The notes under the pieces were generated by a model, which saw only the letters and a program-made list of their open reading frames with translations, searched no databases and was not told the DNA's origin. Both the position numbers and the translations under genes were made by a program. Positions 7,980-32,438 of a stretch of DNA of 36,318 bases are shown in pieces (within the stretch, counting starts at the first letter, position 1; each line of letters starts with the position of its first letter). This DNA comes from Acidobacteriaceae bacterium (GTDB lineage Bacteria; Acidobacteriota; Terriglobia; Terriglobales; Acidobacteriaceae). The stretch covers positions 1-36,318 of the forward strand of contig PLYW01000302.1 in the NCBI GenBank assembly GCA_003151875.1. Direction: 5' to 3'.

Positions 7980-10844
7980 ATGAATAAGGAACTTTATGTG
8001 TCCTCCACGCCACACGAAACCAAGGTGGCGCTGGTGGAAGACGACCTACTCGCCGAAGTGTTTTTCGAGCGGGAAAACGAATACACCCTCGCGGGATCGA
8101 TCTACAAAGGCCGGGTCACGCGCGTGCTTCCCGGCATGCAGTCGGCTTTTGTGGACATCGGCTTGGAACGTGATGCCTTCCTGTATGTGTCTGATTTCCT
8201 CGAAGTCACCGGCGATGAAGAGGACGAAGAAGAATTCGGCAGTATTCCTGTGCCGCGCAATGCCATCGATGTAAGCAAAGCGTACGCCGCGCAGGAGGCA
8301 CAGCTCAAAGCGGAGTCTGCCGTTGCTGAACCCGAGATCGCGGAGGAGTTCGAAGTTGCCCAAGAAGATTTCGCTGCTCCCGAGGAGCAATCGGAAGGCG
8401 AGGAGACCGAAGCTTCGTCCACGGCGGACCCTGATTCGGCGGAAGGAACCCGGCCCTGGCGGGGACGACGTCGTCGCCGTGGCGGACGTCGCGGTCAGGG
8501 AGACGAGCGCAATGAGCGGCCAGAGCCAAAGATCGAGCCCGCAAAGCCCGTGGAGGAAGCGCCAGCCTATCATGCGGAAACGCGTCCGCCCGCGCGTCCC
8601 CGCGCGGATTATGGTCCGCCCGCAGGCTATACGCCGATCGTTCTGCCTGGCGAGTCGATTTCGAAGTATCGCAACCTGTCGCAGCAGCCCGCGCCCGAGC
8701 CGAAGGACGAAGACACGCGCGAGCAGGGGTTTTTTGCTCCAGTTGAGGATTCCACTCCCTCTGTCGATTCGAATGCTCAGGTCGGCGCTGAAGTTAAGGA
8801 ACCCGAATTACATTCCGGGTTCGAAACCGGACACGCCGCATCCGAACCACGTCAGACCGAACAGGCAACTGCGCCACCAGCCGGGAGCACCCTTGTCGTC
8901 GAGCATGAGGAAACGGGACAGGCCGAAGCGGCGCACCAAGATGATGACCCGGAACCACGGGAACGCCTGAGCGTCGCACCTTCCCACGGTGCAGAGCCCG
9001 AGGCGAGAGTGACGTCACAGGCAACTGCCACCGAGCTTCTGACCGCTACGGCAGAGAATCCAACTCTGCCCGAAGAACTGCCAGCGGAAGTCCAGAGCAC
9101 CGACCTGCCGCCGGCCGGCGAAAATCGGGAACCAAATCACAGCGAAGGCGCAACCCGGCAGTCGCCGGGCTTCCAATCGCTCGCCGCTCCTTCGGTCGCT
9201 CCCGAGGGACGTACCCTGGAGCACGAAGTTTTGGAAGACGAGGAGATGGAATTCCATCCCGTCCCCGACGACCTTAGCGCAATGAGCGAAGTGGAAGGCG
9301 ATGAGGAACTGGTTCTTGAGGAAGAGACCCTCGACGCCGACAACGGCGATTCGGACCGTTGGATTCCCAAGATTGCCGACGTCGATGAGGACGAAGTGGT
9401 GGCGGCTGAGGAGCGTGGAGAACAAATCTACGGCCCCGAGACCGACGAGGAAGAGGAAGAAGAGGCTGGCGAGGCGGAAGAGACCAACGGCCGGGCCGAG
9501 GTGAGGGCTGCGTCTCCCACCGCAGGCTATCAGCAGCGTCAGACGGAGCGTCCCGGCTCCGATCGCCGTGGCTTTCGCGATCGCAATCGCCGTGGTGGTC
9601 CGCGCCGCAACTTCCGCGCGCGTCCCAATACCAACCGCAACCAGCCGCTCATCACCGACTTGCTGAAGGAAGGTCAGGAGGTGCTGATCCAGATTGCCAA
9701 GGAACCGATCGGCAAGAAGGGCGCCCGTATCACGAGCCACATTGCGCTACCCGGCCGTTTTCTGGTGTACATGCCCACGGTCAATCACGTCGGAGTTTCG
9801 CGCAAGATCGCTTCTGACGAAGAACGCCAGCGGCTGAAGCGCATCGTGACCAGCGAACGGGAAAACGGATTAGGCGGATTCATCGTTCGCACTGCTGCCG
9901 CCAACATCAAGGAAGACGATCTGCGCGCCGACATTCGCTTCCTCAAACATCTGTGGGCCGAGATCAAGAGCCGCACCGAGAATAGCAAGTCGCCGGCGCT
10001 GATCTATCACGACCTGAACCTGGTGGAACGGGTGTTGCGCGACCAGGTCAATGCCGACTTCTCGCAGATCTGGGTGGACACCGAAGACGAGTATGAGCGC
10101 GTCGTGCGCTTTGCCAGCCGCTTTCAACCCTCGCTGGTCCGGCGCATCAAGCTCTACACCAAAGACACGCCGTTGTTCGAGCAGTTCGGCATTCAGGACG
10201 AGATCAATCGCTCGCTGAAGTCGAAGGTGTGGCTGAAGAGCGGTGGACATATCGTCATCAACCAGACCGAAGCGCTGGTAGCCATCGACATCAACACCGG
10301 CAAATATGTTGGCAAGACGCAGCGGCTGGAAGACACCATCGCCAAGACCAACGTGGATGCGGTCAAGGAAATCGTGCGGCAGATCCGGCTGCGCGACCTG
10401 GGCGGCATCATCGTCATTGACTTCATCGACATGGACGAGCGCAAGAATCGCCAGAAGGTGATGCAGGCCCTGGAAGAGGCCTTGCGCAACGATCGCGCTC
10501 CGTCGAAGGTGCTGCAGTTCAACGATTTCGGACTGGTCGCGATTACCCGCAAGCGGGTGAAGCAATCGCTGGAGCGCACCCTGGGAGAGACTTGCCCCTA
10601 CTGTGTGGGCGCGGGCTTTGTGAAGTCGGTGCCGACCGTATGCAATGAGCTTTACATCGAGATGCGCAAGATGGCTAAGGTGCACGACAAGACTGACATC
10701 ACGCTGCGCGTGAATCCCGAAGTGGCCAAGGCCCTGAAGGCCAGCAACGGCAAGCTGATTTCAGAGATGGAAGACTTGACCGGCAAGACCGTGCTGGTGA
10801 AGAGCGACCCTCTGTTGCACCAGGAAAACTTCGATATTCATTAG
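7980..10844 (+). CDS. Rne/Rng-family ribonuclease (RNase E/G) with a ~480-aa insertion splitting the S1 domain
   Basis: N-terminal residues 1-73 match the RNase G start and first half of S1 (GSIYKGRVTRVLPGMQSAFVDIGLERDAFLYVSDF). The family sequence resumes at ~residue 555 (LLKEGQEVLIQIAKEPIGKKGARITSHIALPGRFLVYMP). The DNase-I-like core follows (ALVAIDINTGK, GGIIVIDFIDM) and then the Zn-link CPYC. Confidence 0.9.
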   Translation: MNKELYVSSTPHETKVALVEDDLLAEVFFERENEYTLAGSIYKGRVTRVLPGMQSAFVDIGLERDAFLYVSDFLEVTGDEEDEEEFGSIPVPRNAIDVSKAYAAQEAQLKAESAVAEPEIAEEFEVAQEDFAAPEEQSEGEETEASSTADPDSAEGTRPWRGRRRRRGGRRGQGDERNERPEPKIEPAKPVEEAPAYHAETRPPARPRADYGPPAGYTPIVLPGESISKYRNLSQQPAPEPKDEDTREQGFFAPVEDSTPSVDSNAQVGAEVKEPELHSGFETGHAASEPRQTEQATAPPAGSTLVVEHEETGQAEAAHQDDDPEPRERLSVAPSHGAEPEARVTSQATATELLTATAENPTLPEELPAEVQSTDLPPAGENREPNHSEGATRQSPGFQSLAAPSVAPEGRTLEHEVLEDEEMEFHPVPDDLSAMSEVEGDEELVLEEETLDADNGDSDRWIPKIADVDEDEVVAAEERGEQIYGPETDEEEEEEAGEAEETNGRAEVRAASPTAGYQQRQTERPGSDRRGFRDRNRRGGPRRNFRARPNTNRNQPLITDLLKEGQEVLIQIAKEPIGKKGARITSHIALPGRFLVYMPTVNHVGVSRKIASDEERQRLKRIVTSERENGLGGFIVRTAAANIKEDDLRADIRFLKHLWAEIKSRTENSKSPALIYHDLNLVERVLRDQVNADFSQIWVDTEDEYERVVRFASRFQPSLVRRIKLYTKDTPLFEQFGIQDEINRSLKSKVWLKSGGHIVINQTEALVAIDINTGKYVGKTQRLEDTIAKTNVDAVKEIVRQIRLRDLGGIIVIDFIDMDERKNRQKVMQALEEALRNDRAPSKVLQFNDFGLVAITRKRVKQSLERTLGETCPYCVGAGFVKSVPTVCNELYIEMRKMAKVHDKTDITLRVNPEVAKALKASNGKLISEMEDLTGKTVLVKSDPLLHQENFDIH

Positions 10845-11399: not shown

Positions 11400-11474
11400 T
11401 TCCGCGCCGCCAACGCCCTGCCAAATCCAAGAAGGTCCCATAACGCGCGTTGGCAGGTGGGTTATGCTTTAGCC

Positions 11475-12221
11475 ATGCAGGTGCGCGTGCTTTACCTGGG
11501 GATGCTGCGGGACCTCGCCGGGCGCGAGCGTGAAGTGGTGCAGCTCTCCGACGGCGCGCGCTTGTCCGATCTCTATGCCGAGCTCCAGCAGCGCATACCG
11601 AAGTTGCAGGACTTTCGCAACGCCATCGCTCTCTCCGTCAATTACGAATACTCCGATGGGGCGGCGATTTTACAGGACAACGATGAGGTAGCGCTGATTC
11701 CGCCCGTAAGCGGAGGTAAGGTTGACGAAGACTCGACGGCCGAGATCTCTTTGCCGCTCATTTCCGGCCACTGTAGCCTGGTCGGCGAGCCAATCCAGAC
11801 GGCTGCCATCGTCGCCGCCATCAAGCGTCCGGAAGACGGAGCGGTCGCCGTCTTCGACGGGATTGTGCGCAATCACTCGCGAGGACGCCGGACCCTCTAC
11901 CTCGACTACACTGCTTATGGGCCGATGGCGTTGCGGCAGATGGAGCAGTTAGCGCAGCAGGCACTGGCAAATTACGCTATCCGCGACGTGCGCATCGTGC
12001 ATCGCCTGGGGCGTTTACGGATTGGCGAAACCAGCGTCTATATTGTGGTTGCCTCATCCCATCGCGCCGCGGCCTTCGATGCATGCCGCTGGCTGATCGA
12101 TACGCTGAAGAAGACAGTGCCCATCTGGAAGCGGGAGTTTTTCGAAGATGGGGCGGCATGGGCGGATGGCGAATCTTTTCCTCCGGAAATTCCGCGTGCC
12201 GGCAGGAGCGCGTCAAAGTAG
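11475..12221 (+). CDS. Molybdopterin synthase MoaD-MoaE fusion protein
   Basis: Residues 1-81 are MoaD/ThiS-like and end in ...IPPVSGG. After a ~20-aa linker comes MoaE (AVFDGIVRNHSRGR, VRIVHRLGRLRIGETSVYIVVASSHRAAAFDACRWLIDTLKKTVPIWK). The ATG at 11475 is preferred over the ORF-track GTG at 11457. Confidence 0.85.
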   Translation: MQVRVLYLGMLRDLAGREREVVQLSDGARLSDLYAELQQRIPKLQDFRNAIALSVNYEYSDGAAILQDNDEVALIPPVSGGKVDEDSTAEISLPLISGHCSLVGEPIQTAAIVAAIKRPEDGAVAVFDGIVRNHSRGRRTLYLDYTAYGPMALRQMEQLAQQALANYAIRDVRIVHRLGRLRIGETSVYIVVASSHRAAAFDACRWLIDTLKKTVPIWKREFFEDGAAWADGESFPPEIPRAGRSASK

Positions 12222-13328: not shown

Positions 13329-13407
13329 GCGGTCTGACTGAGTACTGATAACTGACATAACTGACTGCCGGCAAGTGTTCTGCTACACTGCGATTTTCGA
13401 GGTCACC

Positions 13408-13707
13408 ATGTCGAATCCTCCGCAACCATTGATCCAGTTGACCAATACCCCCGACTACCGCGAAAGCTATGCCAACAGCGTACAAGTACGGGTGAATGTG
13501 TGGGACTTCTTCCTGATTTTTGGCACCCTGCAGCAGCAGGACGAAACCCGCGTGGAGGTGCGCAACTTCCAGGGAATCTATTTGAGTCCGCAGCAGGCAA
13601 AAGCGCTTTATACCATCCTGCAGCAGAACCTGGTGAACTACGAAAACACCTTCGGAGAGATCAAGCTCGATCCCCGCATGGGGCCCGGGATGGGCCCGAT
13701 TCATTAA
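13408..13707 (+). CDS. DUF3467-domain protein
   Basis: The motif YANSVQVRVNVWDFFLIFG...IYLSPQQAKALYTILQQNL is typical of DUF3467. The ATG at 13408 is preferred to the upstream ORF-track start at 13375. Confidence 0.7.
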   Translation: MSNPPQPLIQLTNTPDYRESYANSVQVRVNVWDFFLIFGTLQQQDETRVEVRNFQGIYLSPQQAKALYTILQQNLVNYENTFGEIKLDPRMGPGMGPIH

Positions 13708-13726
13708 ACCTGCGGACAACTCGCGG

Positions 13727-15331
13727 GTGTCGAGCTTTCAGGGCCGCCTGCGCGAATACCTCTTCGCCTACGCGCTCATTTTTGTATTCCTGTTCGTCAC
13801 TCATGCTCCTTTACTGCGGCTGCCCTATTTCTGGGACGAAGCCGGCTACTTTATTCCGGCGGCGCGCGATCTTTTGCTCACCGGTTCACTGATTCCGCAC
13901 ACCACGCTCTCCAACGCACATCCACCCATGGTAATGCTGTGGCTGGCATTCTGGTGGAAGGCCAGTGGCTTCACCCCGGCAGTGACCCGAACTGCGATGT
14001 TGTTGATCGCTGCGTTCGCCCTGCTGGGGTTGTGGCGGCTTGCGCGCGACGTAGCCAATGAGCAGATCGCGGCCGCAACCGTCTTGTGCACGGCGGTCTA
14101 TTCCGTGTTCTTTGCGCAGAGCTCGATGGCCCACCTCGACATGATGGTTTGCGCCCTGACGCTTTGGGGACTGGCAATGTACGTGGAGCGCAGACCGGTG
14201 GCCACCATCGTGTTCTTGGCTCTTGCGCCTCTCGCCAAGGAGACCGCCATCGTAACCCCTCTGGCGTTGCTGGCTTGGGAAATACTTTGTCCCTTGCTGC
14301 AGCGGAGTACACGGCGACACGAACCGTTCTGCCTATATCAGCGCAACTGGCTGGCTGCCTTCTCGTTTCTGTTGTGCCTGGTCCCGCTCGCGCTGTGGTT
14401 CCTCTATCACCATCACCGGACCGGTTTCTACTTCGGCAATCCGGAGTACCTGCGCTACAACCTGCAAGCTACCCTCACTCCACTGCGCATCGTGCTTGCG
14501 ATCCTGATACGGCTCTGGCACGCGCTGGGCTATCTGAACCTGTTTGTACTGACGCTGGCCGCAGCCTTTGCCATGGGCCTTCCTCCGCTGCCGGGGCCCG
14601 ACGGCACACTGCGGCCCCGCATTCCCATCAATGTGCAACTCGTGTTTGGGGTGGTTATACTGGCGCATGTCATGGCCCTGTCAGCGCTCGGAGGCGCGGT
14701 GCTGGCTCGCTACATGCTTCCGGTTGTGCCGCTCGTGATCCTGCTTTGTGTTTCCACGCTGTGGCGTCGTGCCCAGCATTGGCCGTGGTGGATCGCATTG
14801 AGCTGCGTAGCTTTTGTGTTCGCGCTACTCACTCCGCCGCCCTATCGCATCGCTCCTGAGGACACATTGCTGTATCGCGATTACGTCATCGTCCATAAAC
14901 AGGCCGCCGATGAGTTGGCGGCCCGTTTCCCGCACGCACGTGTGCTCACGGCCTGGCCGGCTTCCGATGAGCTGACGCGGCCGTTCCTGGGATACGTCAA
15001 ACAGCCGCTTGCGGTGGCGCCCATCGAGAACTTCTCCGCCCTCGAAATCGAACGGGCTGCGCAAGCCACCGATCAGTTCGATGTGGCGCTGCTATTTCCC
15101 ACCAAGTGGCAGCCTCCGCATCCTCTGTTCCGGAGTTTGCCCTTCGGCGAAGAATTGCAGGAACGTTTCTTCGACTATCGCCAGGAGTTGGGTCCGCAAC
15201 AAGTGGCGAACATTCTCGGCGGGCGGACGGTGCGTTTCCTGAATCGTAACAACGAATGGGTCGCAATCGTCGTGATCGAGAAAGTCGAAAATGCGGGCGC
15301 TCGAGATTTGGAGTTGCGCCGCGCTCCCTAA
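13727..15331 (+). CDS. Polytopic membrane protein, ArnT/PMT-like GT-C fold glycosyltransferase (putative)
   Basis: It has more than 10 hydrophobic segments. An acidic first-loop motif (YFWDEAGYFIPAA) resembles the GT-C catalytic DE/DD loop. A soluble C-terminal domain of ~170 aa follows. The assignment is by pattern only. Confidence 0.6.
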   Translation: MSSFQGRLREYLFAYALIFVFLFVTHAPLLRLPYFWDEAGYFIPAARDLLLTGSLIPHTTLSNAHPPMVMLWLAFWWKASGFTPAVTRTAMLLIAAFALLGLWRLARDVANEQIAAATVLCTAVYSVFFAQSSMAHLDMMVCALTLWGLAMYVERRPVATIVFLALAPLAKETAIVTPLALLAWEILCPLLQRSTRRHEPFCLYQRNWLAAFSFLLCLVPLALWFLYHHHRTGFYFGNPEYLRYNLQATLTPLRIVLAILIRLWHALGYLNLFVLTLAAAFAMGLPPLPGPDGTLRPRIPINVQLVFGVVILAHVMALSALGGAVLARYMLPVVPLVILLCVSTLWRRAQHWPWWIALSCVAFVFALLTPPPYRIAPEDTLLYRDYVIVHKQAADELAARFPHARVLTAWPASDELTRPFLGYVKQPLAVAPIENFSALEIERAAQATDQFDVALLFPTKWQPPHPLFRSLPFGEELQERFFDYRQELGPQQVANILGGRTVRFLNRNNEWVAIVVIEKVENAGARDLELRRAP

Positions 15332-15392
15332 TTGCGAGCCGCACGCCCGAGGTCCGGACTTCGCCGTCGTTCGAGCGGTTAAACTGTGAGCG

Positions 15393-17912
15393 ATGGCACG
15401 CACCACCATCCTGGACTACCTCGATAACTTCCGCCGCCACGCTCGCGAGGTGGCCTACGCTCAACATCGCGGTTATCGCATGCAGCGATGGACGTACGGC
15501 GATGTGCTGAGCAACGCCTATCGCTTTGCGCGCGAGCTGGAGCAGCGCGGCATCGGCAAGGGCGACAAGGTCATTCTTTGGGGCGAGAACTGCGCGGAGT
15601 GGGTGGTCGCCTTTTTCGGATGCTTGCTGCGCGGCGCCATCGCGGTGCCCATTGACAAGATCGCGGCCCCGGATTTCGCCCAGCGTGTCGCCCAACAGGT
15701 GGATGCCAGGCTCTGTGTTGGCTCAATGCAGAACCACATCCCGGGCATCGCAGAGATCAACCTGGAAACCCTGCGCGAGCAACTCGCGGCGCTCTCCGAT
15801 CAGCCCGTGGCTCCCCCGCCGCTCACGCGCGACGATGTTGTGCAGATTGTCTTCACCTCCGGCACGACTGCCGAGCCGCGTGGTGTAGTCATTACTCATG
15901 GCAACATCCTGGCCAACTTGGAGCCGCTGGAGCGCGAGATCGGCGAATACCTCCGCTACGAGCGCATTTTTCATCCGCTGCGATTCTTGAATCTGCTGCC
16001 CCTCAGCCACGTCTTTGGGCAATTCCTCGGGATCTTCCTGCCGCAATTGCTGGCGGCCACCGTGATCTTCCAAGACACGCTGAACCCGACGGAAGTTCTG
16101 CATGCCATCAAGAAAGAACGCGTATCGGTGGTAGTCGCGGTACCGCGCCTGATGGAGTCGCTAAAAGACAAACTGCTGCGCGATTTCGACGCGGCGGGCC
16201 GGCAGGAGTGGTTCCAACGACAATTCGAAGCCGCAAACAACCAGCACTTCGTGCAACGCTGGTGGCGCTTCCGGAAAATTCACAACCAATTCGGATGGAA
16301 GTTTTGGGCCTTCATCTCGGGAGGCGCAGCGCTCGACGGCGAGACCGAAGAATTCTGGCGCCGTCTGAGCTTCGTGGTCATTCAGGGCTACGGCCTCACC
16401 GAGACAACGTCGCTGATCTCTCTAAATCATCCCTTTCGCACCGGCAAACGCTCGATTGGCAAAGTACTCGAGGGCCGCGAGATCAAGCTCGATGAGAACG
16501 GCGAAATCCTGGTGCGCGGTGCCAATGTCGCCGCCGGTTATTGGCAGGGAAAGGAACTGAAGCCGGTGTTGAATGAGGAAGGTTGGTTTCGCACTGGCGA
16601 CCTTGGCGAACTCGACGCGGAGGGCAATCTCTATTTCAAGGGCCGCAAGAAAAATGTCATCGTGACGCGCGAAGGGATGAACATTTATCCCGAGGACCTC
16701 GAAAATGCGCTGCGCCAGCCCGCGATACTCGACTGCGTCGTCGTCGGCCTGGAGCAGGGAGTCAACGCCGAGCCTTGCGCCGTTCTCATTCTGCGAGACT
16801 CGACCGATCCAGAGGCAGTCGTCAGGCGTGCCAACCAGCAGCTCGCGGAGTATCAGCAGATGCGCCGCTGGTTCGTGTGGCCCGAGCAGGACTTCCCGCG
16901 CACTCCCACGCTGAAGCCCAGGATCGCCGCCATCCAGCAGGCGGTGCAGCAACACTTCGCCTCGGGCAATGTCGGAGCCAGCGCGCCGAGGGGAGCTCTG
17001 GTGGACCTGATCGCGCGCATCACTGGACGCAGCACCGGCCCGCTCGCCCCCGATGCCAGGCTCGACGAAGATCTGGACCTTAGTTCCATGGACCGCGTCG
17101 AACTGATGAGCGCGCTGGAAGACCGTTACCAGGTCGATCTCAACGAGGCGAACTTCGCCAGCGTCAGCACGGTTGGCGATCTCGAACGTTTGCTGCGCGG
17201 GCCGCAGAAGTCGCCGCAGAGCGGCTATCGGTATCCGCGATGGGCGCAGCGCTGGCCTATCACCTGGATTCGCAACTTCATCTACTATCTGCTTACCTGG
17301 CCGGCGACCATGATCATGGCTCACCCCAAGATCGTTGGCCGCGAGAACCTGCGCGGTATCGACGGGCCGTTCCTCATCAGTTGCAATCACGTTACCTACA
17401 TCGATGTTGGCTTCGCGCTGATCGCGCTTCCGCCCCGGGTGCGGCACAAGCTCGCGGTTGGCATGTGGGGAGAGATGCTGTGGGAGATGTGGCGACCGCC
17501 TCAAACCTGGAATCCCTTCGTGCGTTTGGCGTATCGCGCCGGCTACTATCTGGTGGTTGCCCTGTTCAACGTCTTTCCGCTGCCGCAGCAGTCGGGCGTG
17601 CGCGAGAGTTTCGCCTACGCCGGTGAATCGGTGGACCGCGGCTACAGCGTTCTGGTTTACCCCGAAGGTGTGCGCACGCCGGATGGCAAGCCGTCGCCCT
17701 TCCGCTCGGGTGTCGGAATGCTGGCTTCAAGGCTGAACGTCCCGGTTGTTCCCATGCGCATCGATGGATTGTACCCGATGAAAATGGCCGGGCACAAAAT
17801 CGCGCGCCCCGGAGAGCTGGCGGTCGTGATCGGCAAGCCCATGCGCTTTCCGCCGGAAACCCCCGCGGAGGAAATCACCAAGCAGCTCGAACACATCACG
17901 TCGTCCATGTGA
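15393..17912 (+). CDS. Three-domain fusion: AMP-dependent (acyl) adenylase/ligase + carrier-protein domain + PlsC/LPLAT-type acyltransferase
   Basis: Adenylation motifs are TSGTTAEPRGV, GYGLTETT and TGDLGELDAEGNLYFKGRKKNVI. A carrier-like LDLSSMDRVELMSALE sits at residues ~561-576. Acyltransferase motifs are HX4D (NHVTYID) and YPEGVRTPDG. Confidence 0.85.
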   Translation: MARTTILDYLDNFRRHAREVAYAQHRGYRMQRWTYGDVLSNAYRFARELEQRGIGKGDKVILWGENCAEWVVAFFGCLLRGAIAVPIDKIAAPDFAQRVAQQVDARLCVGSMQNHIPGIAEINLETLREQLAALSDQPVAPPPLTRDDVVQIVFTSGTTAEPRGVVITHGNILANLEPLEREIGEYLRYERIFHPLRFLNLLPLSHVFGQFLGIFLPQLLAATVIFQDTLNPTEVLHAIKKERVSVVVAVPRLMESLKDKLLRDFDAAGRQEWFQRQFEAANNQHFVQRWWRFRKIHNQFGWKFWAFISGGAALDGETEEFWRRLSFVVIQGYGLTETTSLISLNHPFRTGKRSIGKVLEGREIKLDENGEILVRGANVAAGYWQGKELKPVLNEEGWFRTGDLGELDAEGNLYFKGRKKNVIVTREGMNIYPEDLENALRQPAILDCVVVGLEQGVNAEPCAVLILRDSTDPEAVVRRANQQLAEYQQMRRWFVWPEQDFPRTPTLKPRIAAIQQAVQQHFASGNVGASAPRGALVDLIARITGRSTGPLAPDARLDEDLDLSSMDRVELMSALEDRYQVDLNEANFASVSTVGDLERLLRGPQKSPQSGYRYPRWAQRWPITWIRNFIYYLLTWPATMIMAHPKIVGRENLRGIDGPFLISCNHVTYIDVGFALIALPPRVRHKLAVGMWGEMLWEMWRPPQTWNPFVRLAYRAGYYLVVALFNVFPLPQQSGVRESFAYAGESVDRGYSVLVYPEGVRTPDGKPSPFRSGVGMLASRLNVPVVPMRIDGLYPMKMAGHKIARPGELAVVIGKPMRFPPETPAEEITKQLEHITSSM

Positions 17913-18090
17913 GCGGGGCTTGAGAAACTGACCCCCTCTGTGACGCGCCTCCTAGCCCTCGTATGGGCAGAAATGATAACAATACTTGTTTGGCCCTCGG
18001 GTATGATTTCGTCCCTGTTGATTTCGGGGCGCAAGGCGCCCCACCGAAGCCGGGTTTTGCTTGGGTGGGGGATTTTGCGGGGGAGTAGCG

Positions 18091-18633
18091 ATGCGCGAAG
18101 CGGTACTTAAATTGTGGCCTGAGATCGAGTGGATTAAGGCGCCCGAGCTGCGTGAGCAGGTCACCAAGACCTGGCAGCGCGCCCTCGAACTCAGCCCGCT
18201 CACGCCAGACGACCTCAACCGCATCCCGTTCACCTTGCTGGTGCCAAACTGCCCCACGACTTTCATGGAGCACAAGCGCTGCGTGGTGCACATCGCGCGC
18301 ACGGCGGCCGAGAGCATGAAGGAATTTATGGGGCGCGCGCTGCCCATTGATATGGACACGGTGATTGCGGGCGCGATCCTGGCCGATGTCGGCAAGCTGC
18401 TGGAGTACGAAAACGTGGACGGCAAGACCCGCCAGAGCAAGCGCGGCGAGCTGCTGCGCCATCCCTTTACCGGCGTGGCGCTGGCGATGGAATGCGGAGT
18501 GCCCGACGCGGTGTGCCATATTATTGCGGCGCACGCCGCCGAAGGCGATCTGGTAAAGCGCACCACCGAGGCCTACATCGTGCACCACGCCGATTTCATG
18601 GCCTTTCTGCCGTTCAAGAACCTGGCGAAATAG
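18091..18633 (+). CDS. HD-superfamily domain protein (variant metal motif)
   Basis: The spacing is HD-domain-like: H (VVHIA), ADVGK where HDxGK is expected, H (LLRHPF), H (IIAAHAAEGD), D (VHHADF). ATG 18091 is preferred over TTG 18061. The gene ends 23 nt before the PrpD-family gene. Confidence 0.7.
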   Translation: MREAVLKLWPEIEWIKAPELREQVTKTWQRALELSPLTPDDLNRIPFTLLVPNCPTTFMEHKRCVVHIARTAAESMKEFMGRALPIDMDTVIAGAILADVGKLLEYENVDGKTRQSKRGELLRHPFTGVALAMECGVPDAVCHIIAAHAAEGDLVKRTTEAYIVHHADFMAFLPFKNLAK

Positions 18634-18656
18634 AAGAAAACGAGGAGAAGACTCTG

Positions 18657-20093
18657 ATGTCAACCACAACTGCGCCAGCGCCGAGCCAAGCGGCCGCCAA
18701 GCCGACGATCACGGCGATCATGGCGCAATGGGCCGCCGGTCTGAAGTTCGAGCAGCTCTCTCCAGACGCGGTGTATCAGGCCAAGCGCTTCTTGCTCGAC
18801 AGCATTGGCTGCGCGCTTGGCGGCTACCAGCAGCATGACGTCATGATCGCGTTGGGAGTGCTGAACGAAATTGCAGGTCGGAGCGGTGCAACTGTGATCG
18901 GCAGCGGCCAGCAGATGGATGTGGTGTCGGCGTCGCTGGCCAACGCGCTGATGATTCGCTGCATGGACTATAACGACATTTACTGGAAGCAGGACCCGTC
19001 GCATCCGTCGGACATTTTTTCCGCGGCAATGGCGGCCGGTGAGCGTGCCGGCAGCGATGGGCGCGAACTCATCGTCGGTCTGGTGCTGGGCCACGAATTT
19101 GAGATGCGTCTATGCGAAGCGGCCTTCCCCGGCATTCGCGAGCGCGGCTGGCATCATGCCACGTTGACCGCATTCGTCTCGCCGATCGTGGCCGGACGCA
19201 TGCTGTGCCTCAGCGCCGACCAAATTCAGCACGCCATCGGCATCGGCGCCAGCGCGCGCGCCACCCTGGGCGCAGTCACCGCCGGCAAACTGACCATGAT
19301 GAAGAACACCGTCGATCCCATGGCCACGCAGAGCGGCGTGCTGGCCGCCTTGCTGGCGGAAAAGGGATATACCGGCCCCGAGCATGTGATCGATGGTAAA
19401 GAAGGGTTGGTCCATTGCTTCGGGCCGGAGTGGAAGCTGAATATTCTGACCGACGGGCTGGGCGATTCGTGGCGTATCACGCAATGTGGGATGAAGGCGT
19501 TTCCCACCGAAGCCCTGACGCACACGCCAATCTCCGCTGTGCTTGCGCTGGTGAAGGACCACGACCTGAAGCCCAACGACATAGCCAAAGTACACATTCG
19601 CACCACGGCGCGCGGGGCCGACATTCTGAGCGATCCCAGCAAGTACGATCCTCATACCAAGGAGACAGCCGACCACTCGCTCCCATATGTCATTGCTGCT
19701 GCTATCGCCGAACGCCAAGTCACTCCCTTGCAGTTCACTCAGGCGAAGATCATGGACCCGGTGATCCGGGCCCAGCTCAGCAAGATCGCTGTCTCCGCCG
19801 ATCCCGAGATCGAGAAGGTCTTTCCGGCGCTACAGCGCGTGATCGTGATGATCCACACCATCGATGGCCGCGAGTTCACAACCCAGCTTGACTACCCCAA
19901 GGGCGATCCGCGAAATCCGCTGACCGACAAAGAAGTGGAAGAGAAGTTCGAAGCGCTGGCGGAGCCGGTGATGTCGCGCGAAGCCCGTCGTCGCGCCATG
20001 GACGCCATCTGGAACCTGGAGAAGCAGCCGAGCGTGACTGCGCTGATGAAGCTGTTCAAGGCTGACCGGCTACTGGCAGCGGGAGGTCATTGA
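18657..20093 (+). CDS. MmgE/PrpD-family protein (2-methylcitrate dehydratase-like)
   Basis: The 478 aa show the family pattern (AKRFLLDSIGCALGG, RCMDYNDIYW, HPSD, GWHHATL, KAFPTEALTHTPI, ADHSLPYVIAAA). The ATG at 18657 follows a GAGGAGAAG RBS. The ORF-track start at 18492 runs through the HD gene and is rejected. Confidence 0.88.
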   Translation: MSTTTAPAPSQAAAKPTITAIMAQWAAGLKFEQLSPDAVYQAKRFLLDSIGCALGGYQQHDVMIALGVLNEIAGRSGATVIGSGQQMDVVSASLANALMIRCMDYNDIYWKQDPSHPSDIFSAAMAAGERAGSDGRELIVGLVLGHEFEMRLCEAAFPGIRERGWHHATLTAFVSPIVAGRMLCLSADQIQHAIGIGASARATLGAVTAGKLTMMKNTVDPMATQSGVLAALLAEKGYTGPEHVIDGKEGLVHCFGPEWKLNILTDGLGDSWRITQCGMKAFPTEALTHTPISAVLALVKDHDLKPNDIAKVHIRTTARGADILSDPSKYDPHTKETADHSLPYVIAAAIAERQVTPLQFTQAKIMDPVIRAQLSKIAVSADPEIEKVFPALQRVIVMIHTIDGREFTTQLDYPKGDPRNPLTDKEVEEKFEALAEPVMSREARRRAMDAIWNLEKQPSVTALMKLFKADRLLAAGGH

Positions 20094-20094
20094 G

Positions 20095-22059
20095 ATGGGA
20101 CAGACCATCGTCGAAAAGATCGCGCAAGCACACATGTCCGAGGGGCCGAGCCGTCCTCTGCGCGCCGGTGACTTCCTTTCCATCCGGCCTTATCACGTGA
20201 TGACCCACGACAATACCTCGGCGGTCATGAAGAAATTCAAGGCCATCGGCGCGAAGAAGGTGCACGATCCGGCACAGCCGGTCATCACCGCCGATCACGA
20301 TATTCAGAACACGGAGGCGTCGAACCTGGCGAAGTATCGCAGCATGGAGGCGTTTGCGCGCGAGCAGGGCATCGACTTCTATCCGCCGGGCACCGGCATC
20401 GGCCACCAGATCATGGTGGAGAAGGGCTACGTGCTGCCCGGGACATTTGTCGTCGCCTCCGATTCGCACTCCAATATGTATGGCGCACTGGGCGCGATCG
20501 GGACGCCGGTGGTGCGCACCGACGCGGCGGCAATCTGGGCGACGGGTGAGTTCTGGTGGCAGATTCCACGCACCGTGCAGGTTGTGCTCGAAGGCCGGCT
20601 TGCGCCGGGTGCAACCGGCAAAGATGTGATCGTGACGTTGTGCGGACTCTACAACCGTGAAGAAGTGTTGAACGCCGCCGTCGAGTTCACCGGGCCGGGT
20701 GTGGCGTCGCTCAGCATGGATGCGCGACTGACCATCGCCAACATGTCCACCGAGTGGGGAACGTTGGTCGGCTGGTTCCCGGTGGACGAGGTTACGCTGC
20801 TTTACCTCGAAGCGCACAATGAAGAATTGCGGGCGCGGGGGATCACGCGTATTCCCCAAGAGAAATTTGAGGAGTGGCACACGAATCCTCCGGCTCCGGA
20901 CAACGACGCGACGTACGCGGGCCGGATCACGCTGGATCTGGCGGAGGTCACGCCGCATGTTTCGGGTCCGGACACGGTGCAGGTGATGCAGTCGGTCGCC
21001 GAAATCGCGAAAAAGAAAGTCGCCATCCAGAAGGCGTACCTGGTTTCGTGCGTGAACTCGCGGCTGGAAGACCTGGAGGCTGCGGCGAAGGTGCTGCACG
21101 GCAAGAAGGTCGCGGACGGTGTGCAGTTTTATCTTGCGGCGGCCAGTCGCGCGGTACAGGAAGAAGCGGAAAAGCGCGGCGTGTGGCAAACCTTGCTCGA
21201 CGCGGGCGCGCATTCGCTGCCGTCAGGATGTGGGCCGTGCATCGGCCTGGGTACGGGATTGCTCGAAGCGGGCGAGGTTGGTATCTCCGCCACCAATCGC
21301 AATTTCAAGGGGCGGATGGGTTCGCGCGATGCGCAGTGCTATCTTGGCAGTCCCGAAGTCGTCGCCGCTTCCGCCGTCGCCGGCTACATCTGTGGACCTG
21401 CGCAGGCCGAGTATCACGAACTGAAGAAACATTTTGAAGTGCTGGCCACGGGTTCGGCTTCGGCCGAGAAGGTCGAAATCCTGCCCGGGTTTCCGCAGCG
21501 CGTGCGGGGAAGGCTGATCTTCCTGCCGCAGGATAACCTGAATACCGACGGCATTTACGGCAAGGACTACACCTATCGTGAAGACATGACGCCGGAGATG
21601 ATGGCGGGCGTCGTGATGGAAAATTATGATCCGCAGTTTGCTGGGCGCACGCGTGAGGGGGACGTCATAGTCGGAGGCTTCAACTTCGGCACGGGTTCCA
21701 GCCGCGAGCAAGCGGTGACGGCGATGAAATGCAAAGGCATTCCGCTGGTGATTGCGGGTAGTTTCTCGCAGACTTATCTGCGCAACGCGTTCAATAACGG
21801 ATTTCTCTGCATCGAGACGCCGGAGCTGGTGAGCCGGCTGCGCGCAAAGTCTTCCGACGCGGTCGCGCGCAAGGAAAAGACGATTATTCCGGGGGACGAG
21901 GTCGAGGTTGATTTTTCCGCCAGCATCATACGTTACGCAGGCGAGCAGTTCGCCTTCCCGGCGCTGGGCAGCGTGCCGCAGTCGCTGGTGATTGCAGGCG
22001 GAGTGGAGAACCTGGTGAGCCAAAAGCTGGGGCTGAGCACGGTGACGGCGCAGATTTAG
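20095..22059 (+). CDS. Aconitase-family hydro-lyase with fused large and small subunits (LeuC/LeuD- or homoaconitase-like)
   Basis: Large-subunit motifs are ASDSHSN, VSCVNSR and SGCGPCIG, providing the three Fe-S cysteines. A small-subunit part follows (LNTDGIYGKDY, GFNFGTGSSREQA). It starts 1 nt after the PrpD-family stop. Confidence 0.9.
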   Translation: MGQTIVEKIAQAHMSEGPSRPLRAGDFLSIRPYHVMTHDNTSAVMKKFKAIGAKKVHDPAQPVITADHDIQNTEASNLAKYRSMEAFAREQGIDFYPPGTGIGHQIMVEKGYVLPGTFVVASDSHSNMYGALGAIGTPVVRTDAAAIWATGEFWWQIPRTVQVVLEGRLAPGATGKDVIVTLCGLYNREEVLNAAVEFTGPGVASLSMDARLTIANMSTEWGTLVGWFPVDEVTLLYLEAHNEELRARGITRIPQEKFEEWHTNPPAPDNDATYAGRITLDLAEVTPHVSGPDTVQVMQSVAEIAKKKVAIQKAYLVSCVNSRLEDLEAAAKVLHGKKVADGVQFYLAAASRAVQEEAEKRGVWQTLLDAGAHSLPSGCGPCIGLGTGLLEAGEVGISATNRNFKGRMGSRDAQCYLGSPEVVAASAVAGYICGPAQAEYHELKKHFEVLATGSASAEKVEILPGFPQRVRGRLIFLPQDNLNTDGIYGKDYTYREDMTPEMMAGVVMENYDPQFAGRTREGDVIVGGFNFGTGSSREQAVTAMKCKGIPLVIAGSFSQTYLRNAFNNGFLCIETPELVSRLRAKSSDAVARKEKTIIPGDEVEVDFSASIIRYAGEQFAFPALGSVPQSLVIAGGVENLVSQKLGLSTVTAQI

Positions 22060-22113
22060 TGGCTGTCCCACAATGTGGGACATAGAGCGGTTGACGGTTA
22101 ATGTGCGTAATAG

Positions 22114-22167
22114 GGGTCCTTCGACTCCGGCGGCCAAAAACGGGCTGTCTTCGCTCAGGATGACAAA
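22114..22167 (-). repeat. Degenerate unit of the TTGTCATCC interspersed repeat (minus orientation)
   Basis: The minus strand reads tttgtcatcctgagcgaagacagcccgtttttggccgccggagtcgaaggacccc. It shares the TTGTCATCC head and the GAAGGA tail with the other units. It lies in the only sizeable spacer of the metabolic cluster. Confidence 0.35.
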
Positions 22168-22210
22168 TCCATCCGGCGGAATACTCGGTTGTGCAGAGGA
22201 GTTGGCATCC

Positions 22211-23437
22211 ATGGCAAAACATAAAGTCGTGTCCATGCCGGGCGATGGCATTGGCAATCAGGTCCTGCCCGAGGCGATTCGCGTGCTCGACGCCGTCGGT
22301 TTCGAGGCTGAGTACGTACACGCCGATATCGGTTGGGAGTGCTGGACCAAGGAAGGTAATGCTCTTCCCGAGCGCACCATCGAGCTACTGCGCCAGCACA
22401 AGGTCGGTCTGTTCGGCGCCATCACCTCGAAGCCGAAGAAGGAAGCCGAGGCCGAGTTGAGCCCTGCATTACGCGGCAAAGGCCATCAGTATTTCAGCCC
22501 AATTGTTTCCATGCGACAGATCTTCAACCTCGACGTGTGCATGCGACCGTGCCTGTCGTTTCCCGGCAATCCGCTTAACTTCATCCGCAAAAAGCCGTCT
22601 GGCGGGTACGAGGAGCCCAAAGTGGACGTGGTGGTCTTCCGGCAGAACACGGAAGGATTGTATGCGGGAGTGGAGTGGACGAATCCTCCGCAACCAGTAC
22701 GTGACGCATTGCGCACCCACCCGAAGTTCAAGCCCTTCGCCAACGTTGCCGGTGAGGACCTGGCGATTTCGGTACGCATCATTACTCGTCCGGCGGCGCG
22801 ACGGATTTGCGAGACCGCATTCCTTCATGCGCGCAAGCACGACTACAAATCGGTGACCATCTGCGAGAAGCCCAATGTGCTGCGCGAAACTTCGGGCATG
22901 ATGGAAGAAGCTGCCAAGGAAGTACAGAAGCAGTACAGCGACATTGCGCTGTGGTCCACCAACATCGACGCGCAAACCATGTGGCTGACCAAGAACCCGG
23001 AAGAGTATGGCGTGATCGTGGCCAGCAACTTGTTCGGCGATGTCATCAGCGACGCGTTCGCGGGACTGGTTGGCGGGCTTGGGTTTGCGGCTTCCGGCAA
23101 CGTCGGTCAGGAGGTTGCGGTGTTCGAGCCCACGCATGGATCAGCTCCCAAGTATGCCGAGTTAAATCCAGCAATCGTCAACCCGATTGCTATGATTCTT
23201 TCGGCGGCGATGATGCTCGATCATCTCGGCGAGAACGACAAGGCGCGCAGAATTCGCGATGCTATCGCGGCGGTTGTGGCCGAAGGCCAAGTGCGTACCT
23301 ATGACATGATGCGGCTCTCCGGCGGGACGAAATCGCTGGCCCAGGGCGCGGCCTCGACAACGCAGATGACAGACGCCATCCTGGCGAAGCTGGGGGTGAC
23401 AGTGGAGAAGGCTTATGCCGGCAGTGGCAGGAATTAG
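22211..23437 (+). CDS. Isocitrate/isopropylmalate-family beta-decarboxylating dehydrogenase
   Basis: Family motifs are MPGDGIGNQV, VVFRQNTEGLYAG, NLFGDVISD and FEPTHGSAP. The ATG at 22211 follows a GAGGAG RBS. The ORF-track start at 22073 is rejected because it reads through a repeat. Confidence 0.9.
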   Translation: MAKHKVVSMPGDGIGNQVLPEAIRVLDAVGFEAEYVHADIGWECWTKEGNALPERTIELLRQHKVGLFGAITSKPKKEAEAELSPALRGKGHQYFSPIVSMRQIFNLDVCMRPCLSFPGNPLNFIRKKPSGGYEEPKVDVVVFRQNTEGLYAGVEWTNPPQPVRDALRTHPKFKPFANVAGEDLAISVRIITRPAARRICETAFLHARKHDYKSVTICEKPNVLRETSGMMEEAAKEVQKQYSDIALWSTNIDAQTMWLTKNPEEYGVIVASNLFGDVISDAFAGLVGGLGFAASGNVGQEVAVFEPTHGSAPKYAELNPAIVNPIAMILSAAMMLDHLGENDKARRIRDAIAAVVAEGQVRTYDMMRLSGGTKSLAQGAASTTQMTDAILAKLGVTVEKAYAGSGRN

Positions 23438-24656
23438 CACATTACGACGAGGCGAGGCGGGACGCGCCGGCGACGACATTCGCTCCGACTTGCACGTCAG
23501 CTTCGAAGAACGCGCCAGCGGCGGGATTGAGATCGGCCTGCGCTCGCGCGTTGAGCTGTATTACGGCGAGGTCATCCGGCGGCAGGTGTGCGACGTCCTG
23601 TGCACGCTGGGCGTCGAGCATGCGCTAATCGGGATCATGGACGAAGGCGCGCTGCCATTCGTGATCGCAGCGCGCATCGAGGCAGGGGTGCGCCGCGCTG
23701 GACTCGCGCAAGGCAAGTCAGCGCTGCCAGAGGCGGTAACGCTTGCGGCGCCGTCGCTGCGAGACCGTCTGCGGCGCTCCCGCCTTTATCTTCCGGGCAA
23801 TGAACCCAAATATTTCATCAACGCCGGACTGCATGGGCCGGACGCGGTCATTCTCGACCTGGAAGATTCGGTGCACTATGCCGAGAAAGACGCGGCGCGG
23901 CTGCTGGTTCGCAATGCGCTACGGGCCGTGGATTTCGGTACCGCGGAACGCATGGTCCGGATCAATCAGCTTCCGCTCGGTCTGGCCGACCTGGAAGAGA
24001 TTGTTCCGCAGTCGCCCGATGTCATCCTGATTCCGAAAGTCGAAGCCGCTGCGCAGATATCTGACGTTGTGGGAGCTGTTGATTCGATCACGCAACGAGT
24101 GGGCGTCACGCGTCCCATCTGGCTGATGCCGATTCTCGAATCCGCGCTGGGCATCGAGAATGCGTTCGCCATCGCGACCGCTTCGGGGCGCATTGCCGCC
24201 ATCACTCTCGGATTGGAGGACTACACCGCCGATCTCGGAGTTGCCAAGACCGCAGGCGGAAGCGAGTCGCTCTATGCCCGCCAGCGCGTGGTGAATGCCG
24301 CCCACGCCGCCCACGTGCAGGCCATTGACTCCGTGTATGGTGACGTAGTCGACACCGACGGACTGCTGCACTGGGGCGAGGCTTCATGCGCCATGGGGTT
24401 TGAAGGCATGGGATGTATTCACCCGGTGCAAATTGAAATCATTCATCGCGCCTTTGCGCCTGCGCCAAACGAGCTAGAGAAGGCGCAGGCAATCGTTGCG
24501 GCCTTCGAAGAGGCGCAAGCTCGCGGACTTGCCGTGGTGAGCCTCGGGTCCAAGATGATTGACGCTCCCGTAGTGCAGCGCGCAGTGAAGTTGGTCGCAC
24601 GCGCCAGGAAGATGGGCATCATCGCCGATCAGGCGTCAGCAGGAGATCCATCATGA
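23415..24656 (+). CDS. citE: Fusion of a citrate lyase acyl-carrier (CitD, gamma)-like domain and a CitE (beta, citryl-CoA lyase / HpcH-HpaI aldolase) domain
   Basis: Residues ~1-95 align without gaps to E. coli CitD as I recall it (IEIGLRSRVELYYGEVI..., MDEGALPFVIAARIEAG). Residues ~115-413 are CitE-like (RRSRLYLPGNEPKY, DAVILDLEDSV, MVRINQL). The start overlaps the dehydrogenase gene by 23 nt. Confidence 0.85.
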   Translation: MPAVAGISTLRRGEAGRAGDDIRSDLHVSFEERASGGIEIGLRSRVELYYGEVIRRQVCDVLCTLGVEHALIGIMDEGALPFVIAARIEAGVRRAGLAQGKSALPEAVTLAAPSLRDRLRRSRLYLPGNEPKYFINAGLHGPDAVILDLEDSVHYAEKDAARLLVRNALRAVDFGTAERMVRINQLPLGLADLEEIVPQSPDVILIPKVEAAAQISDVVGAVDSITQRVGVTRPIWLMPILESALGIENAFAIATASGRIAAITLGLEDYTADLGVAKTAGGSESLYARQRVVNAAHAAHVQAIDSVYGDVVDTDGLLHWGEASCAMGFEGMGCIHPVQIEIIHRAFAPAPNELEKAQAIVAAFEEAQARGLAVVSLGSKMIDAPVVQRAVKLVARARKMGIIADQASAGDPS

Positions 24657-28745: not shown

Positions 28746-29141
28746 TCATTCCACCGCTTTCCCGAACAGCGCACTCACCCCTGCGATGTTGGGAAGCAGC
28801 TCCGCAGGAAAATTGTGGCGCTGCTGTAAGTACGCAGGATCGTTGTAGCTCAGCCAAACCTTCCCTTCCGCGTCCTGCCAGAACAATGCTTTCAGTGGCA
28901 GATCGATGGCAACACTGGGAGCAGCCTGCATCAAGGGAGTTCCGCCCTTCGGACTGCCGAAGATGAGCAGCTTGGTAGGGCGCATGGCGAGCCCAACCTT
29001 CGCGGCCTCGCCGCTGTGATCTATGCGCGCGAAGATAGTTACGCCGCGCTCCTTGAGCAGCGCTTCGAGGCGCTGCATGGTTTCTTCAACGCTGTGTTGA
29101 CTTGCCAGATGGATGAGCCCGTTCTGCGCGTTCACAGTCAT
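28746..29141 (-). CDS. DUF302-domain protein
   Basis: The pattern (VEETMQRLEALLKERGVTIFARIDH...TKLLIFGSPKGGTPLM...AIDLPLKALFWQD) is typical of DUF302. The ATG at 29141 follows a GGAGG RBS. The longer ORF-track start is rejected. Confidence 0.8.
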   Translation of the reverse strand: MTVNAQNGLIHLASQHSVEETMQRLEALLKERGVTIFARIDHSGEAAKVGLAMRPTKLLIFGSPKGGTPLMQAAPSVAIDLPLKALFWQDAEGKVWLSYNDPAYLQQRHNFPAELLPNIAGVSALFGKAVE

Positions 29142-29244
29142 TTCGACGCCTCCGTTTCGTTGCGGATGCCTCTGCGCGGCCGAGCCATTATGGACGGCGA
29201 CAATCGCTGTCAGCAAGCCGCGCCTGGCAACACTCCGTGTAAGA

Positions 29245-32320: not shown

Positions 32321-32438
32321 TTCGGCAACCGTGCACAGCGGAGCAGGCGGCGTTGCTCCGAAAGAACAGGCGCGGTCAAAGCGCTTTGCCCGCAAGGGCC
32401 GGATAGCACCGCCCGCGAACCGGAGCTACGCTGTGACC

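Follow-up and report, generated by a model that had tools for sequence, protein, structure and literature searches.

An acidobacterial protein that joins adenylase, carrier and PlsC-type acyltransferase domains belongs to a large family of reductase-less ElbD-like proteins

The stretch of DNA analysed here, hereafter the window, comprises 36,318 nucleotides of contig PLYW01000302.1 from a soil Acidobacteriaceae bacterium (assembly GCA_003151875.1), and at positions 15393-17912 of its forward strand it carries a gene for a protein in which an adenylate-forming domain, a carrier domain and a PlsC-type acyltransferase domain follow one another in a single polypeptide. The protein is a typical, well-conserved member of a large and already noted family of reductase-less ElbD-like proteins. 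On balance, we favour the view that it is a peripheral-membrane acylation machine contained in one polypeptide, and we hold with a similarly measured confidence that it serves in fatty-acid salvage or in the re-acylation of membrane lipids, a function like that of Aas exerted by an enzyme that resembles the C-terminal three domains of ElbD.

Domain architecture and conserved active centres

The gene is an uninterrupted open reading frame (ORF) of 839 codons with an ATG start, as seen in both the ORF list and the translation, and its G+C content of ~0.61 is the same as that of the surrounding DNA. The original prediction, made by a model from the letters of the window, had assigned an adenylase, a carrier and a PlsC-type acyltransferase to the 839-residue product. 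Pfam bears this assignment out (Table 1), with every domain exceeding its gathering cut-off (29.9 bits for AMP-binding, 20.8 for PP-binding and 23 for Acyltransferase, PF01553). The carrier domain, on whose detection by hidden Markov model the prediction hinged, reaches 41.5 bits with PF00550, twice its cut-off, and weak AMP-binding_C matches over residues 421-506 complete the adenylase. The predicted motif positions are exact (TSGTT at residue 155, GYGLTE at 332, TGD at 401, GRKK at 417, Ser565 at nucleotide 17085, H666/D671 and YPEGV at 756-760).

An alignment of the protein with 19 full-length homologues of 30-55% identity shows T155-S156-G157, Q331, G332-Y333-G334, E337, T401-G402-D403, R418 and K420 to be invariant, together with S565, N665-H666, D671 and P757-E758-G759. 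Since the carrier serine is kept throughout and the three catalytic centres vary hardly or not at all, purifying selection is indicated rather than chance motifs or a decaying fusion; a pseudogene or chance ORF is ruled out by this conservation across homologues. An AlphaFold2 model of the full-length protein, built on the homologue alignment, has a mean predicted local distance difference test (pLDDT) score of 84 and a predicted template modelling (pTM) score of 0.76, with pLDDT values under 50 only at the P-loop and at residues 526-533 and 606-609, the latter two segments being the linkers that flank the carrier domain. The domains and their conserved active centres thus lend support to the earlier idea that the protein would activate, tether and transfer an acyl group by itself.

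Table 1 Coordinates of the gene, its domains and motifs, and of genes discussed in the text. Coordinates are those of the window unless a locus (L) is given
Feature	Coordinates	Strand	Remarks
Whole gene: adenylase, carrier and PlsC-type acyltransferase	15393..17912	+	839 aa plus stop; homologues of 839-840 aa cover 100%
ANL adenylate-forming domain, N-terminal subdomain, residues 14-384	15432..16544	+	PF00501, E 1e-64, 219 bits
A3 P-loop TSGTTAEPRG, residues 155-164	15855..15884	+	Arg in place of the usual Lys in the clade of the protein
A5 motif GYGLTE, residues 332-337	16386..16403	+	Motif search and alignment
A7 TGD (401-403) to A8 GRKK (417-420), hinge into C-terminal subdomain	16593..16652	+	
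A10 catalytic lysine K508, within PRTPTLKPR	16914..16916	+	At least 90% conserved
Carrier (ACP-like) domain, residues 535-601	16995..17195	+	PF00550, E 1.6e-10, 41.5 bits
Ser565, predicted phosphopantetheine attachment site, second Ser of LDLSSM 561-566	17085..17087	+	Invariant in alignment
Trp-rich amphipathic helices, residues 616-642, before acyltransferase core	17238..17318	+	Model: helices 616-619 and 621-642
PlsC/LPLAT-type acyltransferase domain, residues 646-790	17328..17762	+	PF01553, E 1e-11, 45.2 bits
HX4D catalytic dyad H666/D671 (motif I), NHVTYID 665-671	17388..17405	+	Invariant
Motif II region FPLPQQS, residues 727-733	17571..17591	+	Gln732 at the usual phosphate-binding Arg; family column frequencies
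Motif III P757-E758-G759, in YPEGV 756-760	17661..17669	+	Invariant
Upstream GT-C-like membrane protein	13727..15331	+	PMT_2, E 3.6e-8, 34 bits (cut-off 26.1), weak
AcpS-type genes	L049:910-1380; L055:9591-9929; L058:12330-12638		Metagenome-assembled genomes labelled Methanosarcinales, Uhrbacteria and Woesearchaeota
Lipid-kinase genes (DAGK_cat/YegS) adjoining homologues	L055:12453-13445; L072:4388-5371; L079:9395-9904	-; +; +	
CdsA-like phosphatidate cytidylyltransferase gene	L058:12633-13583	-	Convergent with homologue

The core motifs of the ANL superfamily (A3, A5, A7, A8 and the A10 lysine) are all present in the adenylase. The PRG variant of its P-loop occurs in all 120 of the closest protein clusters listed and is therefore a trait of the lineage, not a sequence error. 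FadD13, feruloyl/fatty-acyl-coenzyme A (CoA) synthetase and MenE are its best solved relatives, profile scores of the NCBIfam/TIGR type place it nearest to fatty-acyl-CoA ligase models, and a Foldseek search with the full-length model gave MenE a template modelling (TM) score of 0.81 normalised to the target; this search returned adenylase matches only, and the acyltransferase domain was modelled separately. Against the acyl-CoA ligase FadD13 the adenylase scores 128.9 bits, versus 79.8 bits against the E. coli fatty acyl-AMP ligase (FAAL) 3PBK, and no FAAL is present among the 50 listed fold matches of the full-length model. A long-chain fatty acid is the most probable substrate, considering that fatty-acyl-CoA ligases lead the family and structure matches, that ElbD activates fatty acids and that the acceptor domain is a lipid acyltransferase.

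Within the carrier domain, Ser565 opens a modelled helix spanning residues 565-579, which is the canonical position of attachment, and the isolated segment is closest to the AcpP/AcpM-type acyl carrier protein (ACP) models in NCBIfam rather than being like the peptidyl carriers of non-ribosomal peptide synthetases (NRPS).

The model of residues 608-839 has a pLDDT of 93, and its top Foldseek match is Thermotoga maritima PlsC (5KYM; E 3e-9, TM 0.63, 215 of 232 columns), followed by PatA, LpxM and GPAT1 at E ~1e-5, with TM scores of ~0.5 for PatA and LpxM. The same PlsC is also the only strong solved relative by sequence (E 1.5e-10 for the sequence by itself and 6.6e-22 for the family profile). 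On the model for PlsC proper, TIGR00530, the acyltransferase part obtains 33.7 bits against a cut-off of 102.95, and it is also close to the acyltransferase part of Aas models. The column of the usual motif II arginine holds arginine in 41% and glutamine in 39% of the family; the arginine is kept in E. coli PlsC (GNLLIDR) and in a poribacterial ElbD-type protein (LPIER). Ahead of the core, residues 616-642 have a hydropathy under the transmembrane threshold, with W617 and R627 at least 90% conserved in the homologue alignment, and the modelled helices are a probable interfacial membrane anchor rather than a membrane span.

Relatives, distribution and gene neighbourhoods of the family

ElbD of Myxococcus xanthus is the only homologue with the same three-domain order that has been characterised in part, according to the passages on this protein in PMC9131029. 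There it is described as having fatty-acyl reductase (FAR), acyl-CoA synthetase (ACS), ACP and AGPAT-like domains, of which ACS and ACP were shown to function in vitro, a fatty acid being activated and loaded (Lorenzen 2014, as reported in those passages). Among the loci examined, two from Poribacteria encode proteins of 1411-1417 residues in which NAD_binding_4/Sterile, AMP-binding, PP-binding and Acyltransferase domains follow one another, and in one of them (L071) a HAD-like gene lies directly downstream, which is the ElbD/ElbB arrangement. Residues 1-833 of the acidobacterial protein align with residues 562-1390 of the poribacterial one in one colinear high-scoring segment pair (26% identity, 271 bits), with adenylase, carrier and PlsC-type acyltransferase in identical order, so that the predicted comparison with ElbD, the same three domains plus a reductase, is borne out by this protein. 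The acidobacterial protein differs in lacking the ~560-residue N-terminal fatty-acyl reductase (NAD_binding_4 and Sterile) and in its motif II, which reads FPLPQ rather than LPIER. No FAR, ElbB-like HAD or ElbE-like epimerase gene adjoins it, the only HAD gene in the window (29113-29880) lying 11 kb away, and across the family just 2 of 105 immediate neighbours match NAD_binding_4. Without a reductase it cannot itself make the aldehyde or alcohol that is presumed to be the distinctive product of ElbD. A midpoint-rooted neighbour-joining tree, which is a coarse test only, unites the ElbD-type proteins with reductase-less Pyrinomonadaceae proteins in one clade and places our protein in a separate, much larger reductase-less clade; the branching order agrees with acidobacterial taxonomy, as fits a housekeeping role passed on by vertical descent.

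With Aas, to which the original prediction had also likened the protein, it would share the combination of ATP-dependent fatty-acid activation and PlsC-type lipid acylation in one polypeptide by way of an acyl-carrier thioester, and E. coli MG1655 Aas matches the adenylase with 98 bits and the PEG-motif region with 36 bits. Comparison with the E. coli protein confirmed the predicted differences: Aas has its acyltransferase first and, having no built-in carrier, relies on the ACP of the cell. On NF006386, a model of Aas-type proteins fused to a major facilitator superfamily (MFS) transporter (cut-off 1221), the whole acidobacterial protein reaches 124 bits; its acyltransferase part obtains 15 bits on the E. 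coli-type NF005959 (cut-off 886) and 41 on NF006386. E. coli Aas would thus be a functional analogue only; the protein is built like ElbD and is a member of neither group. Residues 608-839 share the HX4D and PEG motifs and an N-terminal helical segment ahead of the core with PlsC 5KYM, which is a stand-alone enzyme of ~240 residues that draws on dissolved acyl-ACP or acyl-CoA; the protein differs from it in the absence of the motif II arginine and in an insertion of ~30 residues between motifs I and II.

The FAAL-ACP didomain loaders, as described in the relevant part of PMC11837247, also fuse an adenylase to its own carrier for CoA-free fatty-acid activation. They pass the acyl chain to modules of polyketide synthases or NRPS rather than to a PlsC-type transferase, and the adenylase described here gives a higher score with acyl-CoA ligases than with the solved FAAL. 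In the AlmE/AlmF/AlmG system of Vibrio cholerae and in the Dlt system, an adenylase loads a small carrier and a membrane acyltransferase acylates an envelope lipid or polymer, AlmG being a member of the LPLAT superfamily. Unlike our protein, these systems consist of separate proteins and activate amino acids (glycine and D-alanine); an amino-acid-activating enzyme of the Alm/Dlt type was ruled out by a score of 135 bits on the amino-acid adenylation model TIGR01733, far below its cut-off of 317.

The rarity implied by the original prediction proved overstated, since the architecture is common and not peculiar to the window. The best 120 matches in a database clustered at 90% are 79-93% identical, measure 839-868 residues and contain the three Pfam domains without exception; the nearest named homologues come from Candidatus Korobacteraceae, and the closest are annotated in their sources as 'AMP-binding protein' or 'long-chain acyl-CoA synthetase'. 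At 50% clustering, the best 150 representatives extend down to 31% identity, are mostly full-length (800-930 residues) and repeat the order adenylase-carrier-acyltransferase. A scan of species-representative genomes finds the family mostly in Acidobacteriota (Terriglobia, Vicinamibacteria, Bryobacterales and Thermoanaerobaculia), but also in Chloroflexota, Verrucomicrobiota, an Actinomycetes and a Nitrosomonas metagenome-assembled genome (MAG), and further in Uhrbacteria, Saccharibacteria, Woesearchaeota and a MAG labelled Methanosarcinales; Pfam confirmed the three domains in the loci L011, L049, L058, L059, L072 and L079. Reductase-less homologues of ElbD had been noted earlier (Lorenzen 2014, as cited in the ElbD passages of PMC9131029). 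Literature searches returned no characterised protein with the A-ACP-PlsC order, and hence no orthologue with a known product, and the passages searched of a review of FAALs make no mention of this architecture.

The neighbourhoods of homologues in other lineages were compared by clustering the 1318 ORFs of 83 loci through all-versus-all BLAST, and no Pfam family dominates among the 105 immediate neighbours. A DEAD-box helicase stands beside the homologue in five loci, which probably reflects lineage synteny. In three loci (L049, L055 and L058), AcpS-type phosphopantetheinyl transferase (PPTase) genes, above the cut-off of TIGR00556, lie on the strand of the homologue and either overlap or adjoin it, and these coupled genes support a pantetheinylated carrier in the family. 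Lipid-kinase genes adjoin homologues in three loci (DAGK_cat in L055, YegS-type in L072 and L079). One or two genes of each kind are expected among the thousands in a genome, and by this rough estimate, meeting a PPTase neighbour three times and a lipid-kinase neighbour two to three times independently in ~60 loci lies far above chance. Together with the CdsA-like gene in L058 they support a placement of the family in glycerolipid metabolism, and the lipid-kinase and CdsA-like genes carry hints of a link to the synthesis of phosphatidate and CDP-diacylglycerol. An MFS gene that follows the homologue on the same strand in Saccharibacteria (L067:11274-12521) was considered as a pairing of the aas-lplT type and rejected, since E. 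coli LplT and this transporter show no similarity. Directly downstream of a homologue with 80% identity stands a gene for a B12-binding radical SAM protein (L001:12790-14103); the window has no such gene, and it was not observed to recur among the neighbours.

Proposed mechanism and alternative explanations

From homology, conservation and gene context we infer the following sequence of events. At the expense of ATP, the ANL domain would make an acyl-adenylate from a free carboxylic acid, most probably from a long-chain fatty acid, in keeping with the homology of the domain, and the pantetheine thiol on Ser565 would then take over the acyl group as a thioester, as the invariance of this serine and the AcpS genes near homologues suggest. 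With its own carrier loaded, the enzyme would need neither free CoA nor the cellular AcpP. The carrier could swing on its two flexible linkers to the C-terminal PlsC-type domain, which the amphipathic helices 616-642 would hold on the cytoplasmic side of the membrane, and His666 and Asp671 would activate a hydroxyl group on a glycerolipid acceptor of the membrane for attack on the thioester. The net reaction would convert free fatty acid, ATP and acceptor lipid to an acylated lipid (an ester). A lysophospholipid is our default guess for the acceptor, considering the similarity to PlsC and Aas; another glycerolipid, such as one without phosphate, is possible, because motif II of this protein has a glutamine where the phosphate-binding arginine would be.

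Several observations weigh against assigning the protein to fatty-acid salvage or lipid re-acylation. The function of the reductase-less members is a putative one, and the ElbD passages of PMC9131029 report that no acyltransferase activity was detectable for ElbD in vitro. MenE, malonyl-CoA synthetase and feruloyl-CoA synthetase score nearly equal to the fatty-acid ligases, and the chain length or type of the substrate is not predictable from sequence and fold scores. With Gln732 at the position of the arginine to which the acceptor phosphate binds, a simple assignment to lysophosphatidate loses weight. As to context, no neighbour family occurs in more than 7 of the 83 loci, and a phmmer search of all loci with E. 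coli LplT (E up to 10) found an LplT-like transporter beside no homologue.

Of the other roles that the protein might have, an ElbD-like part in ether-lipid synthesis, whereby the acyl chain would go to a separate reductase or into acyl-dihydroxyacetone phosphate or acyl-glycerol 3-phosphate and feed precursors of alkyl-ether lipids or glycerol dialkyl glycerol tetraethers of the branched type (brGDGTs), is suggested by the kinship with ElbD itself, whose homologues serve in metagenomic surveys as markers of the potential for ether lipids and brGDGTs in Acidobacteriota and other phyla (PMC11868695; bioRxiv 10.64898/2026.06.23.733905), and by reported variants in which elbD is split and the reductase has an ORF of its own. 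We nevertheless judge it improbable, given the missing reductase domain, the lack of elb-type neighbours and the separation of the protein from the clade of ElbD-type and Pyrinomonadaceae proteins. The family moreover extends to candidate phyla radiation (CPR) bacteria and a MAG of the Solibacteraceae, while ElbD is described as absent from S. usitatus (PMC10087280), and in Pontiella, which has ElbD homologues, no ether lipids were detected (PMC11868695). Since the reductase-less clade is incapable of the reductive step alone, forms a separate branch and has glycerolipid and PPTase genes rather than those of the elb operon as its neighbours, counting its members as ElbD would overestimate the capacity for ether lipids. 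Very improbable, in our estimate, is a vestigial carrier in an otherwise ordinary acyl-CoA synthetase whose acyltransferase takes free acyl-CoA or acyl-AcpP. The higher score on FadD13 than on the FAAL and the source annotations as long-chain acyl-CoA synthetase would fit such a protein, but Ser565 and its helix are invariant down to 30% identity, three loci couple the homologue to a dedicated AcpS gene, the carrier scores at twice the Pfam cut-off, and the order of the three domains with its flexible linkers is kept in more than 150 clusters at the 50% identity level.

The acceptor might instead be an envelope molecule other than a phospholipid (a glycolipid, lipopolysaccharide or lipid A, an ornithine lipid or a hopanoid), perhaps with the participation of the upstream GT-C-like gene, as the original prediction had suggested. 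This gene lies 61 nt upstream on the same strand and stands directly upstream in both closest relatives examined, L086 and L087, where the three-domain protein is 92% and 87% and the GT-C-like protein 89% and 82% identical, respectively; the LPLAT fold includes PatA, which acts on phosphatidylinositol mannosides, and LpxM, which acts on lipid A, as the next structural matches, and the absent motif II arginine would fit an acceptor that has no glycerol-phosphate. In homologues of ~80% identity, however, the adjacency is gone, the upstream gene being a GT4 glycosyltransferase in one genome and a helix-turn-helix (HTH) regulator in another; none of the 82 other loci has a homologue of the window GT-C protein (E<1e-8) within 10 kb of the gene, and a Pfam scan shows no recurrence of PMT_2 proteins among the 105 immediate neighbours. 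The adjacency is thus local synteny rather than a functional coupling or a conserved unit, and of the earlier claim the adjacency itself and the GT-C-like nature of the gene, through a weak PMT_2 match, stand, while the functional link is not supported. The structural evidence likewise favours PlsC over PatA and LpxM, the profile search is strong on PlsC only, and the informative neighbours elsewhere are glycerolipid genes, so we regard an envelope acceptor of this kind as unlikely.

We assign a comparably low likelihood to the building of glycerolipids from scavenged fatty acids, in which the enzyme would acylate glycerol 3-phosphate, monoacylglycerol or an acceptor of that sort, with the product carried on to CDP-diacylglycerol by a lipid kinase and CdsA, especially in CPR/DPANN organisms that have no fatty-acid synthesis. 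The occurrence of the family in Uhrbacteria, Saccharibacteria and Woesearchaeota, the translational coupling to an own AcpS in L049, L055 and L058, the DAGK_cat, CdsA-like and YegS-type neighbours, and the absence of ACP-dependent lipid-synthesis enzymes reported for CPR genomes (bioRxiv 10.1101/465690) point in this direction, and the glutamine in motif II would fit a phosphate-free acceptor. Yet the evidence from neighbours is confined to a handful of loci, ~41% of the family keep the arginine, and Acidobacteria presumably have a complete PlsX/Y/C pathway, with which the enzyme would be redundant in the organism of the window.

Starting from the favoured salvage or re-acylation role, one may speculate, with considerable reserve, that the family as a whole provides a CoA- and AcpP-independent route in a single protein from free fatty acid to membrane glycerolipid. 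It could then be the main scavenging route in CPR/DPANN organisms that have no fatty-acid synthesis, and in acidobacteria it would recycle fatty acids, possibly unusual long or branched ones, to an acceptor that is perhaps not classical lysophosphatidate. The family may thus offer a carrier-autonomous insertion of free fatty acids into membrane lipids and might explain how such lipids are acylated in organisms that have no fatty-acid synthesis or free ACP; its biochemical assignment would fill a gap in acidobacterial lipid metabolism.

Surroundings of the gene in the window

Upstream of the gene, the window holds in order mreB-mreC-mreD, genes for penicillin-binding protein 2 and rodA, an RNase E/G gene and an ORF that has no family match, then a MoaD-MoaE fusion, a VWA protein that matches the acidobacterial model TIGR03436, and the GT-C-like gene. 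A conserved 180-residue ORF follows the three-domain gene, and beyond it lie prpD, aconitase, a dehydrogenase of the isocitrate/isopropylmalate type and citE/citF-like genes. A scan of 13400-18400 gave no promoter-like sites, and terminator-like sites there were fewer than in shuffled sequences.

The GT-C-like ORF of the window is 33-41 residues shorter at its N terminus than its orthologues L086:4251-5954 and L087:4176-5903 (82-89% identical), which have no Pfam match in precomputed annotations. A second GT-C gene at 30749-32320 (forward strand) has a stronger PMT_2 match (E 2e-22) and overlaps the start of a gene for an Ada-type methyltransferase/AraC regulator (32301-33485, forward strand).

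The 180-residue ORF (18091-18633, forward strand) has no Pfam match, and an ORF of the same length occurs between the three-domain gene and the prpD block in L002, L086 and L087; a longer antisense ORF at 17896-18669 is probably spurious. The block itself (18492-26260) consists of co-directional forward-strand genes for PrpD/MmgE, aconitase, the isocitrate/isopropylmalate-type dehydrogenase, a citrate-lyase beta-like protein that carries an N-terminal ACP (MdcD/CitD-like) domain, and CitF, and is syntenic in related Korobacteraceae-like genomes.

The RNase E/G family protein (7980-10844, forward strand) measures 954 residues, with its catalytic domain at 590-860 and no Pfam match in the ~590 N-terminal residues, and the AT skew of the region is strong (0.195 in 8001-10000). 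The MoaD(ThiS-like)-MoaE fusion is encoded at 11457-12221 (forward strand), and a gene that has these same two domains occupies the corresponding position in L086.

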